DNA from: an uncultured Candidatus Saccharibacteria bacterium
Lineage (GTDB): Bacteria; Patescibacteriota; Saccharimonadia; CAILAD01; JADZBC01
Assembly: GCA_964600985.1 (NCBI GenBank)
Contig: CAZRJR010000001.1
Coordinates: forward strand, 235,534-299,533
Length of the DNA stretch: 64,000 nt
Direction: 5' to 3'
Notes under the pieces: generated by a model
What the model saw: the letters and a program-made list of their open reading frames with translations, nothing else
Told to the model about the DNA's origin: nothing
Databases searched by the model: none
Translations under genes and position numbers: made by a program
Shown here: one piece after another, positions 4,608 to 58,495 of the stretch
Layout: the number at the start of each line of letters is the position of its first letter
Position numbering within the stretch: position 1 is the first letter of the stretch

Positions 4608-5960
4608 ATGGAGCAATCACCACAGCGCAGACATGGCATTGATGGGCTAAGTCACCGGCCTGTTTCGCCGCGTCCACAGGCTTCACGACCACCACAGATG
4701 GCCACCGAAAAACTTGTGAGCACTTCCTCGCATCGGCCAAAAGCGGTGCCTCGCAAGTATGGCATAGCAGAGCTGCCGAGTAACTCTGGGTTTGCCTTTA
4801 ACGAAGGCGTGTCTCATCCTGGTCTGCCACAGCAGCACGCACCACTACGAACTAATCAAGCCTCGAGCTTTAAACGCTTGGTTATGTATCCATTTGCTCG
4901 ACCATTCGATAACCGTATAGCACGGTTTGGACTTATCGCCACGGTGCTTGATATACGCTTCTGGCTGGTTTTGAGCCTGCCATTACTTATTCTTCGCTTG
5001 CATGAACTCGCCAAACTTGCACCCATTCAGGTGGTGCATAAGCTCAATGCGCTCCTGGTTGCCCATAATTATGGTTGGGGGGCAGCCTTGCTTGGCGGGT
5101 TGTACTTAGCGGGAGTGCTTTCGGTGCTGATAGTCGCTGTTGCCCTGCAAGTGATCACAGCCATCAAGATCCGAGCTATTGATCACCGCGTTAGTCGCGC
5201 CCATATTCTTGTGCGTCATGCGATCTCGAATATACTCAAGACTACACTCAATTGGCTCATTGACTCTACCTTTGCTCTGAGCATGATTATCCTCGCTTGT
5301 GCGGGCATCTATGGTCTCAGTATATCAACTACTCCTTGGGTGGTTATATGGCGTGATTATTTGGTAGGACTGATTGGACTAGTAAGCTTTCTAGTGCTCG
5401 GTGTGCTCTATGTGCGTCGTAAATTACAGCGGGCTATGCTCGCTACCACCCAGCTACCAGTACGATCTATTCAGGGTCGGTCACTCATGCTTGTGGTGCG
5501 TAATCTGCCCGTAAGTGCACTAGCCCTACTGCTAGCCCTCTTGCAGTTGACGGGGGCTATGGTTATTACGGCTGGAATCGGTGGCATAATTGTACATTAC
5601 TTGCCACTTACTACTACTATCCCCGGGCGTTTATGTCTGTGGCTGCTGGCTGCTATTGGTATGGGCTTGGTATGGTTAGTTACGGTCGTGTGGCAGGCTA
5701 TGCACTGGGCTGGCTTCTACCACCTCGTAGTTTTGCGTGGTAGCAAAGACACCGTGTCGGACTACCTTGTTCCGACAATGCCTTTGAAGCTACGGGTGTG
5801 GCCGGCATTGGTCGCAGCCGGGCTCACCTTGCTGGTATTTTGTACTTACGCCGGTGCAGTAATTGGGCTTCGGCCGCAGGTACGAAGTGTGGTGCAGCGA
5901 GCGAAGCAAGTTATTCCGTCCGATGCTCGTAATATCGTGCCAGGCATTGGTCAGCATTAA
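4608..5960 (+). CDS. polytopic membrane protein, function unknown (true start may lie downstream of the Pro-rich N-terminus)
   Basis: Long ORF with more than 8 predicted TM helices directly after crtB. The N-terminal 90 aa are low-complexity and Pro-rich. Confidence 0.4.
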   Translation: MEQSPQRRHGIDGLSHRPVSPRPQASRPPQMATEKLVSTSSHRPKAVPRKYGIAELPSNSGFAFNEGVSHPGLPQQHAPLRTNQASSFKRLVMYPFARPFDNRIARFGLIATVLDIRFWLVLSLPLLILRLHELAKLAPIQVVHKLNALLVAHNYGWGAALLGGLYLAGVLSVLIVAVALQVITAIKIRAIDHRVSRAHILVRHAISNILKTTLNWLIDSTFALSMIILACAGIYGLSISTTPWVVIWRDYLVGLIGLVSFLVLGVLYVRRKLQRAMLATTQLPVRSIQGRSLMLVVRNLPVSALALLLALLQLTGAMVITAGIGGIIVHYLPLTTTIPGRLCLWLLAAIGMGLVWLVTVVWQAMHWAGFYHLVVLRGSKDTVSDYLVPTMPLKLRVWPALVAAGLTLLVFCTYAGAVIGLRPQVRSVVQRAKQVIPSDARNIVPGIGQH

Positions 5961-6041
5961 CCTTGACGGATCCCTATCTGGTAGGGTATAATGCTAGCTA
6001 AGAAAGCCCCAGAGGCTTTTTTAGATTGACGAAATAATTGG

Positions 6042-6070
6042 TCAAACACTCACAACTAGGTATAATGGAG
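6042..6070 (+). promoter_or_regulatory. sigma70-like promoter upstream of secE (TTGGTC-N17-TATAAT)
   Basis: Hexamers read directly. A second TTGACG-N18-TATAAT lies at 5963-5992 and is followed by a small hairpin plus T-tract. Confidence 0.35.
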
Positions 6071-6074
6071 GGAT

Positions 6075-6266
6075 ATGAATAAGCTTATTACTTACATTTC
6101 GCTTTCCTATGCTGAGCTTCAGAAGGTAACCTGGCCCACTCGCAAGCAGGCCATCCAGCTTACCCTGATAGTAATTGCCTTCTCGGTAGTCCTGGCTGTC
6201 ATAGTTGGCGGGTTTGATACGATTATTCGCTCATTCTTGCAGCAAGTAATCTTAAAGGTGAAATAA
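6075..6266 (+). CDS. secE: preprotein translocase subunit SecE
   Basis: 63-aa single-TM protein immediately upstream of nusG, with the conserved secE-nusG-rplK-rplA order. Confidence 0.75.
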   Translation: MNKLITYISLSYAELQKVTWPTRKQAIQLTLIVIAFSVVLAVIVGGFDTIIRSFLQQVILKVK

Positions 6267-6806
6267 ATGAGCAAAGACAGCACCCCACAGGCTTGGTATG
6301 TAATCCATACCTACTCAGGCTACGAAGACCAGGTGGCCGACAACTTGCGCCAGCGCGTTGAGTCAATGGGCATGAGCGACAAAGTATTTAGCGTAATTGT
6401 ACCTAAAGAAAACCAGATCGAAATCAAAAACGGCAAGCGTCGTGTAGTAGAGCGCAAGATATTCCCCGGCTATATTCTAGTCGAAATGATCGTAACCGAA
6501 GACTCTTGGTATGTAGTGCGTAACACACCAAATGTAACGGGATTTGTTGGTACCGGCACCACACCATCACCGATTAGTGACGATGAAGTAAAGGCAATTC
6601 AGAAGCGTATGGGCGTGGAAGAGCCAAAGTACAAGGTTGACTTCTCGATTGGTCAGTTGGTAAACATAACCGATGGTCCGTTCAAGGGCTTTGATGGCGC
6701 AGTCAGTGAAATCGATGAAAGCAAAGGTAAGCTCAAAGTATTGGTTAACATGTTTGGTCGCGAGACTCCAGTGGAACTAGATAGCTTACAGGTAAAGAAA
6801 GTATAA
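6267..6806 (+). CDS. nusG: transcription termination/antitermination factor NusG
   Basis: NGN domain (WYVIHTYSGYE) plus C-terminal KOW motif (GQLVNITDGPFKGFDG). Confidence 0.9.
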   Translation: MSKDSTPQAWYVIHTYSGYEDQVADNLRQRVESMGMSDKVFSVIVPKENQIEIKNGKRRVVERKIFPGYILVEMIVTEDSWYVVRNTPNVTGFVGTGTTPSPISDDEVKAIQKRMGVEEPKYKVDFSIGQLVNITDGPFKGFDGAVSEIDESKGKLKVLVNMFGRETPVELDSLQVKKV

Positions 6807-6818
6807 AGAGGCTACACT

Positions 6819-7250
6819 ATGGCAGAAGCAAAAAAAGTAAAAGCACGACTTAAAATGGTTATTCCTGGTGGGGGTGCTACACCGGCCCCTCCCGTAGGCT
6901 CGGCCCTCGGTCAGCATGGCGTGAATATGATGGACTTTATTAACGCATTTAATGATCAGACTAAGGATGTTAAAGGCCAGCCGGTACCAACGAAGATTAC
7001 CGTGTACGAAGACAAGAGCTTTACTTTTACTACTAAATCAACACCAGCTGCAACTCTGATTAAGCAAGCTGCTGGTTTGCAAAAAGGCTCCGGCGTACCA
7101 CACAAGGAAAAGGTAGGTACCTTGTCTCAGGCTCAGCTTGCGCAGATTGCTGAGGCTAAGCTACCTGACTTGAGCGCCAACGATATTGAGGCTGCCAAGA
7201 AGGTGATTGCTGGTACAGCCCGATCGATGGGTATTGAAGTAGAGAAGTAA
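6819..7250 (+). CDS. rplK: 50S ribosomal protein L11
   Basis: Canonical L11 sequence ([23 protein letters not shown]). Confidence 0.95.
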
Positions 7251-7315
7251 CAACATATAACTAAGTGGGAGGCGCCTGCCGAGCAGACGCCGCTACAACC
7301 ACCAAGGAGAAAACT

Positions 7316-17672: not shown

Positions 17673-19216
17673 AGGGTAAATCAGCTCTCAGTGGTCTGAA
17701 TAAATGGCTCGGCACTGTGCTTCTGGTTGCAATAATGGTATTAGCTGCGACGTTTAGGCTGTATCAACTTTCGAGTTTGCCACCTGGTATACATCCGAGC
17801 GAAGCAGGCTGGGCAGTGGTCTCATTTAAGCTTGCCCAAAATCACTCATTCGGCACATTACTGGGTAACTCAATGACCGGCTTTGCCGCGCCAGTGGCTG
17901 CTGGCGCTATTGTAGCTAGTGTAGTGAAATCTTTCGTGGCCCTTCGGTATCTCAACGCAGTTTGGGGTGTCCTTATGGTGCTCGGATTGTATTTGTGGAT
18001 CAAAGACGGCTTTGGGCGTAGAGCGGCACTATTGGCAAGCTTGGTTGCTGCTATAAGCCCCTGGGCAGTAACCTTGTCGCGAAACGTCTGGCCCATTAAC
18101 TTAGCTCTCGCGGCTCTCGTTTGGCTGTGTTTCTTTGCTCAACGCGCATACAAGACTGGCAAATGGGGCTATACGTTGGCAGCAGCTGGCACCATGATCC
18201 TTGGCTGTTTTAGCGCACGAGTTTTTTGGGTGGTACCAGTACTATTTTTGCTTTATGCCATTATACTTTTAGCCAAAGGCAAGTTAGGTAAGCTTAAAGC
18301 CCAAAGCTCAGTAGTAACTGTGGCTTTTATGTTGTTCGCAGTAGTGCCATTAGTTGTACTGGGGTTCCTAGGCAAAGGTAGTCCTGCAGCTGGATTAGTG
18401 CGCACTAATTTATCTCATACCGAAGGGTCAGTGGGTGTAGTTAAGGTAAGCCTGGAGAACGCCGGCAAAACTGCACTAATGTTCTTTACCGCTGGGGATG
18501 AAGACTACAGTAGAAACTTGGGCGGCTTGCCAATGTTCAATACCTTCGCCGGGCTTATGCTCTTACTCGGCGTGCTCTTAGCAGTTAAATACCGTCACCG
18601 CTTCGGCTACATGTTTGTGGTAATGGGTTTTGGGGCACTACTGCTTCCGGCAATCATTGGCGTGGGTGTATCGGCGCCCGATGCCTATAGATCGGCCCTA
18701 GCTATGCCATTTGCCTTTGCGCTCGCAGGACTTGGCACTAACTACCTACTAACCCGCTGGTATATGATGTTCCCCATCAATACTACGGCCCGCAACCTTG
18801 GATTAAGCTTTGTGTTGCTCCTTATGTTGCTCTCGGCTTACCAGGGATACCGGCAGTACTTCATCGCCTGGGCGCAGGATCCTCTTACAGTTAGAGCATA
18901 TCGTGACGACCTAGTCTCGGTGGCGGACTATCAAAAGCAACAATCTGGCAAAGTCTATGTAGTGGCTACAGGCGAGGAACTAGCAGTTGTAGCGGCTCAT
19001 AACACCTCTGGGGTAGCAGATGGATTGGGCGGTAGTATAGAGGGCCTCGAGCAGCTGCCTCTAAGCTCAAAACCTCGTTATGTTGTAATTCCTCGCGGCG
19101 ATAAGCAAGCCAGTATAAAACAGCGTGTGGCGGCTAAATTCCCAGGCGGTAAGTTTGTGGCGCAAAATTCAACCTTTGACGATGCGCCGGCATTCGTGTG
19201 GTACAAAACACCATGA
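17669..19216 (+). CDS. GT-C fold membrane glycosyltransferase (ArnT/PMT-like, family 39/83)
   Basis: 515 aa, more than 10 TM helices. The start overlaps the GtrA stop and the end overlaps the GT2 start. Confidence 0.55.
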   Translation: MKGKSALSGLNKWLGTVLLVAIMVLAATFRLYQLSSLPPGIHPSEAGWAVVSFKLAQNHSFGTLLGNSMTGFAAPVAAGAIVASVVKSFVALRYLNAVWGVLMVLGLYLWIKDGFGRRAALLASLVAAISPWAVTLSRNVWPINLALAALVWLCFFAQRAYKTGKWGYTLAAAGTMILGCFSARVFWVVPVLFLLYAIILLAKGKLGKLKAQSSVVTVAFMLFAVVPLVVLGFLGKGSPAAGLVRTNLSHTEGSVGVVKVSLENAGKTALMFFTAGDEDYSRNLGGLPMFNTFAGLMLLLGVLLAVKYRHRFGYMFVVMGFGALLLPAIIGVGVSAPDAYRSALAMPFAFALAGLGTNYLLTRWYMMFPINTTARNLGLSFVLLLMLLSAYQGYRQYFIAWAQDPLTVRAYRDDLVSVADYQKQQSGKVYVVATGEELAVVAAHNTSGVADGLGGSIEGLEQLPLSSKPRYVVIPRGDKQASIKQRVAAKFPGGKFVAQNSTFDDAPAFVWYKTP

Positions 19217-24384: not shown

Positions 24385-24488
24385 TGGTGAGGGGAGGATT
24401 TGAACCTCCGCGTAGTTTTACGACCCGAAGGCCTTCATCGCTAGGCAGGTTTTCAACCCGCTCCATTCGTCCACTCTGGCACCCCACC
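24385..24488 (-). tRNA. tRNA-like gene, 104 nt, class-II-like (anticodon loop folds as TTGAAAA by hand; identity unresolved)
   Basis: Perfect acceptor stem (GGTGGGG/CCTCACC, one G-U), D-arm with a GG motif, 5-bp anticodon stem, and a canonical T-arm (GGAGG-TTCAAAT-CCTCC). There are 35 nt between the anticodon stem and the T-arm, too long for a normal variable arm. Confidence 0.45.
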
Positions 24489-26617: not shown

Positions 26618-27289
26618 TCAGCTCTTTTTGCGGCGAACAGTTCGCTTGGCGGCCATATGGAGCCTGGTGCGCTGTTCTTTGTCTTTTAGTATATGAACCA
26701 CTGATGGTAGTACCGAAACACCTACAATGATAATTACGGCTGGCAAAATATATTGATCTACGTTGGGGATTGCGTTGCCTAAAAAGTAGCCGAGCGAAGT
26801 AATGCCTACGGCCCACAGTAAAGCACCGACTAAGTTGTAGACGAGGAACTTACGATAGTGCATATTACCAACTCCGGCTAAAATGGGCGCAAAGGTACGA
26901 ACTACTGGAGTGAAGCGGGCTAGTATGAGTGCCTTGCCACCGTGGCGCTTAAAGAAGTCTTGTGATTTTTTTATGTAGTCTTTGTTAAATACTAACGAAT
27001 CATCTTTTTTAAACACCTTGTCGCCATAGCGATGACCGGTGGCATAACCGACATTGTCACCCAGGACGGCGGCAATGAACACCACAATAAGTAGCACAGG
27101 AAAGTTAAGTACATTTTGCGATGCTAAAAAACCAGCGGTAAAAAGTAGGCTGTCGCCAGGCAGAAACGCCCCGACTAAGAGTCCGGATTCGGCAAACACA
27201 GCAGCAAAGATGCCGATGTAGCCAACTGAGCGAATGAGTGCGGTGAGATCGAAGTTCATAAGAGGTATTATAACACTATTATCCTGCAT
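26618..27289 (-). CDS. DedA/SNARE-associated family membrane protein
   Basis: DedA signature segments (FAESGLLVGAFLPGDSLLFTAGFLA, GKALILARFTPVVRTF). The ORF-track start at 27469 is an unlikely upstream extension. Confidence 0.8.
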   Translation of the reverse strand: MQDNSVIIPLMNFDLTALIRSVGYIGIFAAVFAESGLLVGAFLPGDSLLFTAGFLASQNVLNFPVLLIVVFIAAVLGDNVGYATGHRYGDKVFKKDDSLVFNKDYIKKSQDFFKRHGGKALILARFTPVVRTFAPILAGVGNMHYRKFLVYNLVGALLWAVGITSLGYFLGNAIPNVDQYILPAVIIIVGVSVLPSVVHILKDKEQRTRLHMAAKRTVRRKKS

Positions 27290-27367
27290 GGTATGGCTCG
27301 TGCTTGCAAGATAGGCTCGAATATTTGATAATACCTGAGTCCTGATCTGTCTCGTGCTAGGAGTAAC

Positions 27368-27748
27368 ATGCCAGAAGCAAAAGAGTGGTCGCCCGAGGAA
27401 GATCGTGAGATTGTCTTTGGGAAAGGCTCTCTGTCGGAGATCGCCGTTAGGATTAACAGGACGCCGCAAGCCGTCTATTCAAGGCTCTATGTGATTCGAG
27501 CTGCACTCAAGCAATCGGGTCGTCGTAAGGCAGTAGAAGTTTTGGGTAAGGCAGCACGTAGTAGGAAATATTACGGTTCGTGCTGCCCAAATCCCAAGAA
27601 TCACCGACGTGCGTGGGCACACGAGGAAGAACTGATGATCCTGGACCCTGATAGGCCTTCGGATCATTTACTGGCAGAACGTATCGGTCGGACAGTTCGA
27701 GCCATTCACGATCGACGCACGCTCATCAGATCGCGAGAGGAGGGGTGA
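27368..27748 (+). CDS. small HTH protein (sigma-70 region-4-like helix-turn-helix), GC-rich foreign-like gene
   Basis: SLSEIAVRINRTPQAVYSRLYVIRAALK resembles the region-4/LuxR-type HTH. ~58% GC against a ~49% flank. A terminator hairpin overlaps the stop (27738-27767). Confidence 0.45.
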   Translation: MPEAKEWSPEEDREIVFGKGSLSEIAVRINRTPQAVYSRLYVIRAALKQSGRRKAVEVLGKAARSRKYYGSCCPNPKNHRRAWAHEEELMILDPDRPSDHLLAERIGRTVRAIHDRRTLIRSREEG

Positions 27749-27871
27749 GGCGTCGGCCTCGCCCCTCCGGGCGCAACCCAATAATATGGGTTGTTTTTCA
27801 TTATAACGAGAATCGCCACCTCCAGGCGATGTTAGTCTCGCGCCAGAAGTGGCGAATGGTGTCTGATGGAG

Positions 27872-28498
27872 TCAGGCAGTGTAGGGCTTGGTGATGACCT
27901 GTGGGTGCCCCAGCTTGCTCCGCCAGCGTGCGCCACGGCCCTGGTAGATGAGTAGCAGGCTGAGCCCGTTTCGGGTCCAGGTACCGTAGATCGAGCTGAT
28001 GCTGTCGGTGACCTGCTCGGGCGTGTTCACCCTCTCGGGATGCAGGATGACGCCGACGATTTTCTCCACAGCTTCGATCCAGCTCCAAAGGGGCTGGGTG
28101 ATGAGGTACGCCCATCCATCGGGAACAAACCCTTCTTCGGCGAACATCCTACCCTCGATCGGGATCTTGGTCGTGTCAGACGCGATCTCGATCGCCTTAA
28201 TGGTCCAGGCGATTGTGGCCGTCTGGGGCAGGCGTCGCTGAATGGACGGAGCCAGCTTGTGACCGAGGCCCGGGAGCCACTTAGGCATCATGCCGACGCC
28301 AATGAAGTCCTGCCCAACCGTCCAGAACATGGCTTGGCCGATGAGGGAGAACCCTGCATCAGTTGCCGTTGCGGCCGGCTGCTCCCGCCAACGCCTCAGC
28401 CCGAGGCGAAGATTGCGTGTTGCTTGCTTGTGGACGAGTGGCCAAGCGGCCAGTACGGCAGCCGAAGCCACCAACTTACGGTTTCTACTTGGAGCCAT
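27872..28498 (-). CDS. hypothetical protein, GC-rich foreign-like gene
   Basis: 208-aa ORF with strong GC3 codon bias (atc, acc, gag, ctc) in this frame only. A 16-bp palindrome containing TATAAT sits ~40 bp upstream. Confidence 0.5.
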   Translation of the reverse strand: MAPSRNRKLVASAAVLAAWPLVHKQATRNLRLGLRRWREQPAATATDAGFSLIGQAMFWTVGQDFIGVGMMPKWLPGLGHKLAPSIQRRLPQTATIAWTIKAIEIASDTTKIPIEGRMFAEEGFVPDGWAYLITQPLWSWIEAVEKIVGVILHPERVNTPEQVTDSISSIYGTWTRNGLSLLLIYQGRGARWRSKLGHPQVITKPYTA

Positions 28499-28535
28499 GG
28501 CTCATCCTTATGTAGGCAATAGGACTAACATATAT

Positions 28536-28551
28536 TACAATTATAATTGTA
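28536..28551. promoter_or_regulatory. 16-bp perfect palindrome TACAATTATAATTGTA (candidate operator/-10 region) upstream of the GC-rich minus-strand gene
   Basis: Read directly. TTGACT (reverse complement of 28555-28560) lies 17 nt from a TAATAT on the minus strand. Confidence 0.4.
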
Positions 28552-28559
28552 AAAAGTCA

Positions 28560-28590
28560 ATTAAAAACACCCTGTTGACCAGGGTGTTGG
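28560..28590 (-). terminator. rho-independent terminator of the Spy/CpxP-like gene
   Basis: AACACCCTG-TTGA-CCAGGGTGTT hairpin followed by TTTTTAATT on the minus strand. Confidence 0.6.
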
Positions 28591-28608
28591 TTCATAGTTA
28601 ATGATTCG

Positions 28609-29115
28609 TTACCGGGCTTGCGAAGTGTCGTCAGCGTCACCATCGTGCTTCATGCGATCCATGCCCATGCCGACAGGACCATGCATGCCCCGCTTAGGCT
28701 GAATGGCGCCTAGGTCGATGCCATTATCCTTGGCCCACTGGTCCATCTCTGAGCGAATTGCGTCCATAGCAGCCTTACGCTTCGCCGGGTCCGTCTCATT
28801 GCGAGCTGCTTCACGCTTTGGCGCTAACTCGGCTTGTTTGGCTTTGAGCATGTCAGCTTGCGCTTGGGTTAGCTTGCCGTCCCTTACAAGCCGGGCTAAG
28901 TGCTCGCCCGCATGCCTCTGGTGATCTTGCTCGATTACCTTTTGCACCTCGGCTTTGTTTAAGTTAAATTTGTTGGCAATACTATCGGCTAACGAGGATT
29001 GGTTGGTATTGGCATACGCCGCAGCTCCAGTAGCTACAACCCCCATGGCAGCTACGCCTACGAGTCCACTTGCTAAAATGGCGCGCTTGGTAGTCTTCTT
29101 GATGTTTTTTCTCAA
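28609..29115 (-). CDS. periplasmic/extracytoplasmic LTxxQ-motif protein (Spy/CpxP family-like)
   Basis: Signal peptide, helical K/A/Q-rich sequence with an LTQAQ motif. Divergent from an OmpR-type two-component operon, as cpxP is from cpxRA. Confidence 0.5.
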   Translation of the reverse strand: MRKNIKKTTKRAILASGLVGVAAMGVVATGAAAYANTNQSSLADSIANKFNLNKAEVQKVIEQDHQRHAGEHLARLVRDGKLTQAQADMLKAKQAELAPKREAARNETDPAKRKAAMDAIRSEMDQWAKDNGIDLGAIQPKRGMHGPVGMGMDRMKHDGDADDTSQAR

Positions 29116-41842: not shown

Positions 41843-41871
41843 TTGACAATGCATTATATTAATGCTATTAT
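41843..41871 (+). promoter_or_regulatory. consensus sigma70 promoter TTGACA-N17-TATTAT in native AT-rich DNA, driving the GC-rich gene
   Basis: Perfect -35, a 17-nt spacer and a near-consensus -10, read directly. Confidence 0.5.
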
Positions 41872-41926
41872 TCATGAGTTGCGCGGGAATCCGTCTCGCA
41901 CACGTAGACCCATAAAGGGGAAGAAA

Positions 41927-42415
41927 GTGAAGAAGATCCTCGAGTTCGTGCTCACCATCGCGAGCAAGATGAAGATCACCGGATCGATCGAGACGACCGA
42001 TGCCACCAAGGTGCCCGACGGGGCCATGAAGGAGCGGTTCAGCCGCCTCAGCGCCCCCCTCACCGTCTTCGGTCAGCACATCTTCGACATCGTGAAGCCC
42101 GGCGGCAACTTCGCCACCGACTGCGAGAAGCTCGCCACCGACTCCGGCACCTCCGTCGTCACGATGCAGATCCCGCTGTCCGAGGGCATGTGCTTCGCCG
42201 TCAAGATGGACATCACGACCGACGGCTACCAGCCGGCGCCTTCCGACCTGCACGAGCTGGTGGCCGAGAGCATCGACCCGGCGCTCGAGGAGATCGGCAC
42301 CATCTGGTTCGGGCCCGACACCGACTCCGAGATCATCGCCGCCTGGCAGATCGATGCGGGGGCGGCGATCCGCGAGCAGCTCGGCCTGGAGACCCGTCAG
42401 CTCGTCGGGAGCTGA
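41927..42415 (+). CDS. hypothetical protein encoded by a ~66% GC insert (actinobacterial-like codon usage)
   Basis: GTG start 6 nt after AAGGGG. The GC jump begins at ~41885 and ends at the terminator. GC3-rich codons. An in-frame ATG at 41843/41849 is an alternative start. Confidence 0.5.
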   Translation: MKKILEFVLTIASKMKITGSIETTDATKVPDGAMKERFSRLSAPLTVFGQHIFDIVKPGGNFATDCEKLATDSGTSVVTMQIPLSEGMCFAVKMDITTDGYQPAPSDLHELVAESIDPALEEIGTIWFGPDTDSEIIAAWQIDAGAAIREQLGLETRQLVGS

Positions 42416-57874: not shown

Positions 57875-58495
57875 TCAGGCCACCTCTGCCGGCCCGGTCC
57901 CGTCGAGGGCCTCCGCCTTCTCGGGCGGCCAGACGTCCTCGTCCGCGAGGACGATGCCGTTGAGGTACTTGGCCCCGATCGGGGCATCCTCGGTGCCACG
58001 GAGCTCATCCGCGGTCTCCTTGGCCTTCTTGCCGACAGCCTCGAGGAGCTCTCGGAGCTTGTCGATGCACTGGCAGTACACCGCCCAGTCGTCCTCCTTG
58101 GCGAGGCCGGACACGCCGCCGAGGAACTCCTCGTGCATCCCGGCTCCCTCCCAGGGGAAGTCGCCTGGACGCAGCATGACGTAGTCCGTCTCCGCCTCCA
58201 GGGAGGTGACGCTGATCGTGCGAAGCACGTACGTCAGCTTGCCGGCGACGTTGTTGTACGTGCCGCCGGGCTCGTTGCTGGCCTTGGGGTCACCGAGGAC
58301 GCCAACGAAGATCTCGTGGGCGAGTGGGTTGCGCCACTCGAGGCACGCCTGCATGAGGTTGTCGGGGTCGAGGATGACGAGCGTGATCCCCTTGTTGGGG
58401 AACCGCTCCGCGAACTCCGCGGCGAACTCGCCATGGAACCAGTCGTTGAAGCGACGCTTCACATCGATGCCGAAGTGGTTGGTGAGATCCAGCAT
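57875..58495 (-). CDS. hypothetical protein encoded by a ~65% GC insert (actinobacterial-like codon usage)
   Basis: 206-aa ORF. GC3-rich codons (ctc, gtc, cgc, gag, gac) only in this frame. Abrupt GC boundaries at the terminator (57855) and at ~58500. Confidence 0.5.
   Translation of the reverse strand: MLDLTNHFGIDVKRRFNDWFHGEFAAEFAERFPNKGITLVILDPDNLMQACLEWRNPLAHEIFVGVLGDPKASNEPGGTYNNVAGKLTYVLRTISVTSLEAETDYVMLRPGDFPWEGAGMHEEFLGGVSGLAKEDDWAVYCQCIDKLRELLEAVGKKAKETADELRGTEDAPIGAKYLNGIVLADEDVWPPEKAEALDGTGPAEVA

Follow-up and report, generated by a model that had tools for sequence, protein, structure and literature searches.

A strain-variable interval in a Saccharimonadia genome that probably carries two independent single-gene modules

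Introduction

Two adjacent, convergent genes in the genome of an uncultured member of the Saccharimonadia (TM7) raise the question of whether neighbours that look like a regulator and its target in fact belong together. A sequence-only reading of the 64,000-nt stretch of DNA analysed here (the window) took them for a foreign, GC-rich, two-gene island, in which a small helix-turn-helix (HTH) protein would control an effector through an operator-like palindrome. Such an island would be routine annotation if it were true, and that reading finds no support in the evidence. We favour, with a probability of roughly 70%, a different account: the interval between ORF168 and dedA would be a small, strain-variable accessory locus of the replacement type, built from two independent monocistronic modules. 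If so, it is a clean and very small case of how rapidly genes can be replaced in the Saccharimonadia (CPR), whose genomes are reduced. Accessory gene flux in this group is of interest as it may shape the interactions between episymbionts and their hosts, and horizontal gene transfer in Patescibacteria is the subject of PMC12455944.

Layout and composition of the interval

The interval is flanked on one side by dedA, a VTT-domain gene on the minus strand (26618-27259; Pfam E 5.8e-23), and on the other by ORF168, a 168-aa gene on the minus strand (28609-29115) that precedes an OmpR-type response regulator and a histidine kinase. Between them lie the two convergent ORFs that had been described earlier, and both are indeed present. 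ORF126 (27368-27748, plus strand) encodes a 126-aa protein with two HTH repeats, and ORF208 (27872-28498, minus strand) encodes an all-alpha protein of 208 aa whose family is uncharacterised. The intrinsic terminator of ORF168 (28566-28588, minus strand) forms the left border of the slot that holds ORF208; its sequence differs in L001, L009 and L016 (loci of relatives are given here by number), and its structure is kept.

Both genes had been put at about 58-60% GC. ORF208 in fact has a GC content of 61.4% and a GC3 of 75%, but ORF126 has just 53.0% and a GC3 of 50%, where the mean GC of the window is 49.5%. The GC3 of ORF208 (0.75) compares with a window mean of 0.53 (z = 2.4), and its composition is an outlier among the window's 53 long ORFs (z = 2.4-2.6). 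ORF126 lies less than 1 sd from the window's genes and is no outlier. The two other GC-rich islets in the window are unrelated to ORF208 in sequence. Antisense or shadow ORFs within ORF208, such as 28040-28522 on the plus strand, were set aside as low-complexity frames rich in D, R, G and P, which are typical of GC-rich genes.

States of the locus among relatives

Relatives carry the interval in four states. The loci L001, L002, L010 and L011 have ORF168h, ORF208 and dedA; they are syntenic (RR-HK, ORF168h, ORF208, dedA, DEAD helicase) and lack ORF126, and about 13-15 nt stand where its module would be. ORF208 together with an ORF126 homolog (ORF126h) and dedA is found in the window, L009 and L024-L026, all with full-length ORF208, and L027 and L028 have ORF126h with a fragment of ORF208 that ends at the contig end. 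The third state, seen in L016-L018, L021 and L023, runs from ORF168h through a CDP-alcohol-phosphatidyltransferase-like gene to ORF126h and dedA. This alternative slot gene encodes 173 aa, is CDP-OH_P_transf-like (Pfam E 2.3e-12) and has a GC of 62.6% and a GC3 of 80%; in L015 the contig ends after ORF126h and a 37-aa piece of this gene. Lastly, L019 and L020 have ORF168h, an empty slot, ORF126h and dedA. These four states mean that ORF126 and ORF208 are present or absent independently of each other, which does not support a two-gene island or a regulator-effector pair. Co-inheritance of ORF126, the palindrome and ORF208 was not found across the relatives.

The comparison shows that the modules are gained, lost or swapped independently, and the turnover of the slot is recent: between L009 and L021 only 3 of 387 nt differ in ORF126h, and the slot genes are unrelated. 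L009 has mosaic flanks: the left one shares 90% identity with L019, and dedA shares 97% with L016, with the reciprocal comparisons at 72% and 79%. Given this mosaic, we favour a reading in which similar terminator tails and conserved flanks recombined and the slot gene was thereby deleted or replaced.

Replacement-type flexible genomic islands hold unrelated, often envelope-related genes at the same position between conserved flanks, and this locus seems to behave like a miniature version of one. The flanks here are also conserved (ORF168 and the two-component system on one side, dedA and the DEAD helicase on the other), close strains have unrelated genes or an empty site between them, the flanks are mosaic and the cargo has an atypical GC content. 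Unlike such islands, the locus is extremely small, with one gene per module, and its cargo has a fixed frame, with a common -35 at one end and a common terminator hairpin at the other.

Horizontal spread of ORF208

At each of the eight loci measured, which represent about six independent lineages, the ORF208-family gene has a higher GC content than the locus around it. Between the window's ORF208 and those of L001, L009 and L010, dS is about 0.7, where the flanking genes lie above 2.3 or at saturation: the DEAD helicase, with a similar dN, has a dS of about 2.4, and dedA, the response regulator and the kinase have reached saturation. When the gene's own codon usage was allowed for, the fraction of identical codons at identical residues was 0.64 observed against 0.44 expected for ORF208, and 0.36 against 0.35 for dedA, which is saturation. 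These comparisons favour a more recent horizontal spread of ORF208 among the lineages. The proposed foreign origin of the pair has support for ORF208 in its GC content and its dS of about 0.7 against saturated flanks, but not for ORF126, which carries no compositional signal.

In more distant Saccharimonadia the ORF208 homolog lies elsewhere, usually divergent from uvrA and in a variable uvrA-uvrB interval (L003-L007, L013). It stands beside a uvrA-like ORF in L012 and among glycogen-metabolism genes in L022.

ORF126 and its module

The two halves of ORF126 are internal repeats (35% identity, E 5e-5), each a three-helix, Myb/homeodomain-like HTH (residues ~7-45 and ~83-121), with a basic, divergent linker between them. 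The HTH had been described as similar to sigma region 4, and only the HTH part of that description stands. In PHROGs, phrog_323 ('transcriptional regulator, D5-like') matches significantly both ORF126 (E 8.6e-10) and its homolog P0015 (2.6e-13); the match spans both halves of ORF126 but only positions 94-186 of the 319 in the profile. Against sigma-70 region 4 (PF08281/PF04545), ORF126 stays below the gathering score, with 13.1 bits for Sigma70_r4_2 (cutoff 25.7, E 0.079), and P0015 reaches 18.7 bits against the same cutoff. The NCBIfam model TIGR02989 is also sub-threshold for ORF126, at 17.5 bits with a cutoff of 124.6. The Myb model PF00249 has a gathering score of 24.4, and the whole protein scores 13.3 bits and repeat 1 alone 17.0. 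The structural features of Myb/SANT domains are present: three helices, a conserved Trp, an HTH formed by helices 2 and 3, and tandem repeats. The domain is best described as tandem Myb/homeodomain-like repeats with phage affinity, and not as sigma region 4. ORF126 joins the Myb/homeodomain-like HTH class as a new and divergent member with a relationship to phrog_323. It differs from other tri-helical HTH proteins of the Myb/SANT/homeodomain-like kind, including the GcrA DNA-binding domain and phrog_323, in falling below the Pfam gathering scores. It differs from phrog_323 in being a stand-alone protein of 126 aa that matches only the central third of the profile, and from that phage family in having no close relative in phage or viral collections.

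An identical ORF126 protein is recorded only on this organism's own contigs. A word-indexed protein search with ORF126 matched only itself, and further homologs were reached with a profile that included the homolog from L009. Close homologs were absent from phage records (tblastn), IMG/VR and JGI metagenome contigs. The homolog ORF126h, found in L009 and other loci, has 128 aa and 45-48% identity and occupies the same position in another Saccharimonadia lineage, and most residues of the predicted recognition helices are kept between the two proteins. Within the L009-type lineage its dN/dS is 0.1-0.3, which indicates a functional gene. The most economical role for ORF126 would be that of a phage-derived transcription factor acting on its own promoter or on distant targets.

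The ORF126 module covers about 520 nt (~27275-27795) and is present in the window and in the L009-type lineage. It has a promoter-like site, TTGCAA-17-GATAAT (27304-27332, plus strand), whose position is conserved in the homolog loci L016, L019 and L024. A direct repeat, CTCGTGCT, lies on both sides of this promoter (27297-27304 and 27351-27358); it is not conserved in the promoters of L016, L019 and L024, so any role for it is speculation. The 13-bp GC-rich hairpin that had been noted over the stop codon was confirmed at 27739-27768 (plus strand); its 5' arm covers the TGA (27746-27748) and it includes one G.U pair. In the L009-type lineage the stems of this hairpin are conserved and the loop is different. 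It is followed by an intrinsic terminator (27773-27799, plus strand) with an 8-bp stem, GCAACCCA/TGGGTTGT, in a hairpin at 27773-27794, and TTTTT. Folded jointly, the two hairpins reach -44.7 kcal/mol (z = -6.1). The ORF126h loci share with the window the stop-overlapping hairpin, the terminator and the positionally conserved promoter.

The ORF208 promoter and its palindrome

A consensus scan placed a promoter-like site for ORF208, TTGACT-17-TAATAT, at 28532-28560 on the minus strand. Its TTGACT (28555-28560, minus strand) is the sole good -35 for the gene. It is separated from TAATAT by 17 nt but from the central TATAAT by only 9 nt, and TTGACT-17-TAATAT is likely the promoter. The palindrome had been described as 16 bp long and centred on a TATAAT in the promoter. 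It is perfect and extends to 18 bp (TTACAATTATAATTGTAA, 28535-28552), but that TATAAT is mis-spaced from the -35. Given the spacing of TTGACT-17-TAATAT, the palindrome takes up the spacer and runs 3 nt into the -10.

When the window was simulated with a first-order Markov model, 28% of the runs contained one or more perfect 18-bp palindromes, and such a palindrome is about as common as chance allows, not clearly above it. As a rough estimate, about 0.1 of them would be expected in the promoter-proximal DNA of the window overall, and the exact placement of this one within a promoter spacer is suggestive. No second copy was found in the window at up to 3 mismatches, and none lies near ORF126's own promoter. 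The hexamers of the ORF208 promoter are conserved in L001, L009, L010 and L024, and the spacer is not. L009 and L024-L026, which have both genes, have TTGACT-17-CATTAT as their ORF208 promoter, and no palindrome is present there despite the largely conserved recognition helices of ORF126h, so a conserved operator is not supported. Its absence from orthologous ORF208 promoters makes the palindrome lineage-specific. The palindromes of L001 and L010, which lack ORF126, are unrelated to it: one, TATCGTAAGTTACGATA, lies upstream of the -35, and the other, ACTTTATCTCAATAAAGT, lies in the spacer and has decayed in L010. Since these loci also have palindromes at the ORF208 promoter, regulation by palindrome-binding factors may recur.

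The palindrome might be the operator of some dimeric factor, for which the comparison does not point to ORF126, and would be occluding if functional. It resembles the palindrome-in-spacer operators of LexA-like and phage-repressor-like control in covering the spacer and the start of the -10, and differs from them in that it is not conserved in orthologous promoters and has no second site. A LexA or SOS box was considered because ORF208 homologs are divergent from uvrA in L003, L006, L007 and L013 and lie beside a uvrA-like ORF in L012. It was rejected: the palindrome is not conserved in the promoters of the uvrA-linked homologs. Nor is TTACAATTATAATTGTAA known to match LexA motifs. The case is a caution that single AT-rich promoter palindromes should not be taken for operators when comparative support is lacking.

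The conserved 3' element of ORF208

ORF208 is followed by a terminator-like element (27805-27855, minus strand) that consists of a 17-bp bulged hairpin (27813-27855) and a UUCUCGUU tail, with a folding energy of -30.9 kcal/mol (z = -4.55). The ~55 nt past the ORF208 stop are near-invariant across lineages whose flanking genes are just 65-75% identical, and the changes between lineages keep or wobble base pairs. The element occurs once in the window, and it has no match in metagenome_contigs and none in Rfam, even at E <= 1. It also follows the unrelated CDP-OH-PT-like gene in L016. L009 and L016 become similar at the last codons, which they share (...GCCGCCTGA), and on the other side are similar again near the -35 (TATTGACTT). 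Where the slot is empty, in L019, nothing separates the terminator tail of ORF168h, TTTTGGTTGT, from the terminator of ORF126h, and occupied slots have the tail TTTTAGTTAT at the left and TTCTCGTTGT at the right. An intrinsic terminator adequately accounts for the hairpin and its U-rich tail.

Weighing the explanations

In the favoured account, the slot module would adjoin the ORF168 terminator, be expressed from the TTGACT -35 and be closed by the conserved long terminator hairpin, with the GC-rich ORF208 as its cargo in the window genome. The ORF126 module would have its own promoter and double-hairpin terminator and would produce a phage-related DNA-binding protein with two HTHs. The strong back-to-back terminators would keep the transcripts of the convergent modules separate, and recombination between co-occurring strains would gain, lose or swap each module independently. 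It is very unlikely, by comparison, that ORF126 is a dedicated repressor of ORF208 acting through the palindrome, with both genes acquired as one foreign island. The repressor model draws on the HTH nature of ORF126, on the position of the palindrome across the spacer and into the -10 of the promoter of ORF208, on the adjacency of the two genes and on the foreign composition of ORF208; and a lineage-specific operator is possible, as the window's ORF126 is just 45-48% identical to the protein of the other lineage. It is at odds with relatives that show every combination with at least one of the two genes, with the both-gene loci that keep most of the recognition helices and have no palindrome, with the ordinary GC content of ORF126 and with the lack of a palindrome copy by the ORF126 promoter or elsewhere in the window. 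Tandem Myb-type repeats, moreover, usually read asymmetric, not palindromic, sites. It is more likely that ORF126 acts elsewhere or on its own promoter. Nor does the pair look like a toxin-antitoxin or anti-phage defence system, as neither protein has a match in PADLOC and the genes are convergent with separate terminators. A vertical history of the ORF208 region is quite unlikely: the high GC3 and low dS would then reflect selection on codons or mRNA structure, and ORF126 would have been lost in some lineages. The GC excess over the host locus in every measured case and the syntenic position in three deep lineages would fit such a history, but codon bias alone cannot give the excess of identical codons while dedA is at saturation, the gene is replaced or missing in very close strains, and in other Saccharimonadia it occupies a different locus (uvrA-uvrB and elsewhere).

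The remaining alternative concerns how the cargo moves. Slot genes, from promoter to hairpin, could be exchanged by site-specific, hairpin-directed recombination of an integron- or attC-like kind, perhaps with the help of ORF126. What speaks for such cassette exchange is that near-identical strains have unrelated GC-rich genes in an identical frame, from the TTGACT -35 to the 17-bp hairpin, that similar tails flank the occupied sites of which L019 has the empty junction, and that slot turnover is so far confined to the lineage with ORF126h, in what is a small sample. Like integron cassettes and attC sites, the locus has a single-gene unit and a conserved imperfect hairpin common to unrelated genes at one site. 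Unlike them it has no integrase, no array and no GTTRRRY core, and its units carry their own -10 and 5'UTR. The neighbouring genes include no recombinase or integrase, the window has a single copy of the hairpin element, and neither of the imperfect repeat tails (7-8/10), TTTTAGTTAT or TTCTCGTTGT, matches GTTRRRY; the mosaic flanks of L009 fit ordinary homologous recombination among strains. We consider cassette exchange highly improbable, and put no higher the bolder version of it, a minimal exchange site without a local integrase whose cargo, ORF208, would represent enzymes of an uncharacterised family and a new all-alpha fold.

The ORF208 family and its possible function

ORF208 is conserved in frame. 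The genome records with close homologs are titled as MAGs of Candidatus Saccharimonadia, Saccharibacteria or Patescibacteria. Among 5.8 billion proteins its close homologs form 13 clusters at 49-89% identity, and a profile search among 1.84 billion representatives gave 36 clusters in total, one of which is a spurious PPR-repeat protein. Residues D64, G77, D108, D127, E142, K146 and R176 are invariant in the family (35 sequences, identity down to 21%). Thirty-six clusters with common invariant polar residues indicate that ORF208 is a real gene. No member of the family has a Pfam domain, ORF208 has no match in PHROG, NCBIfam or PADLOC, and no relatives were found in IMG/VR. It has no sequence relative in the PDB and matches no known family or fold by sequence profile or structure. 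With about 36 clusters, it is a small 'dark' family, in which the D/D/D/E/K/R set is invariant and for which no fold relative is detectable.

An integral-membrane protein was rejected, since the maximum 19-residue Kyte-Doolittle mean is 1.06 and the usual cutoff is about 1.6. ORF208 is probably a soluble, enzyme-like protein, and the pattern of its invariant residues suggests that they probably form a polar, metal-dependent active site. Metal-dependent catalysis by acidic residues is probable, and a link to envelope lipids is possible; the narrower proposal of a lipid- or pyrophosphate-related metal-dependent enzyme is tentative and on balance unlikely. Three associations point weakly to envelope-lipid metabolism: a CDP-alcohol phosphatidyltransferase-like gene takes the place of ORF208 in situ; a second gene of this type adjoins the ORF208 homolog in L012, in convergent orientation; and dedA lies beside ORF208, which in L001 also has lipid-kinase and PGP-phosphatase-like genes in its neighbourhood.

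Occupants of the ORF208 slot

The slot that holds ORF208 in the window is held by a different gene in the close relatives L016, L017, L018, L021 and L023 (handles of related Saccharimonadia contigs), where it encodes a 173-aa CDP-OH_P_transf-like membrane protein (L016 5510-6031, reverse strand, GC3 80%), and another contig, L015, carries a fragment of this gene. The 3' hairpin is common to ORF208 and to the CDP-OH_P_transf-like gene found in the same slot. The protein of L016 also matches phrog_32003 (E 1.6e-8).

The contig of a distant Saccharimonadia MAG, L012, carries an ORF208 homolog (5944-6573, forward strand) convergent with and directly beside a CDP-OH-PT-like ORF (6679-7260, reverse strand) that is 31% identical to the L016 protein, with a uvrA-like ORF adjoining the pair. 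This is a second association of ORF208-type genes with CDP-OH-PT-like genes. Among several other Saccharimonadia (L003-L007 and L013), the uvrA-uvrB interval is itself variable: the ORF208 homolog there is divergent from uvrA, and the neighbouring small hypothetical genes differ.

Synonymous divergence and other GC-rich islets

Synonymous divergence of ORF208 (window 27872-28498) from its homologs in the related contigs L001, L009 and L010 is far below that of the syntenic flanks, with dS of about 0.7 versus at least 2.3 or saturation. Codon bias accounts for only part of this difference.

The window has two further single-gene GC-rich islets, at 57875-58495 (reverse strand, 206 aa, GC 66%, GC3 91%) and 41843-42415 (forward strand, 190 aa, GC 62%, GC3 88%), both more extreme in composition than ORF208, which is thus one of several small genes in this genome that look foreign. 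Neither islet protein resembles ORF208 in sequence, matches a PHROG or has an above-threshold Pfam match, the sole Pfam match of the 206-aa protein being DUF883, below threshold (E 0.0023).

Repeats, palindromes and an atypical tRNA

A direct repeat that includes CTCGTGCT lies on both sides of the ORF126 promoter (window 27289-27304 and 27343-27358), with one copy at the -35 element and the other immediately ahead of the ribosome-binding site; it is not conserved at the homolog loci of ORF126. Besides the perfect 18-mer of the ORF208 promoter spacer, the sole perfect palindrome of at least 16 bp within the window is ATTAGTGCGCACTAAT (18394-18409). The perfect 8+1+8 palindrome TATCGTAAGTTACGATA touches the ORF208 promoter -35 element on its upstream side in L001 (about 5921-5937) and also in L010, and belongs to this lineage, which is without ORF126.

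A 104-nt tRNA was detected by Rfam at window 24385-24488 (reverse strand, 46.6 bits) and was not called by ARAGORN. Its variable region is about 33 nt long, and it is adjoined by tRNA-Asn and tRNA-Phe.
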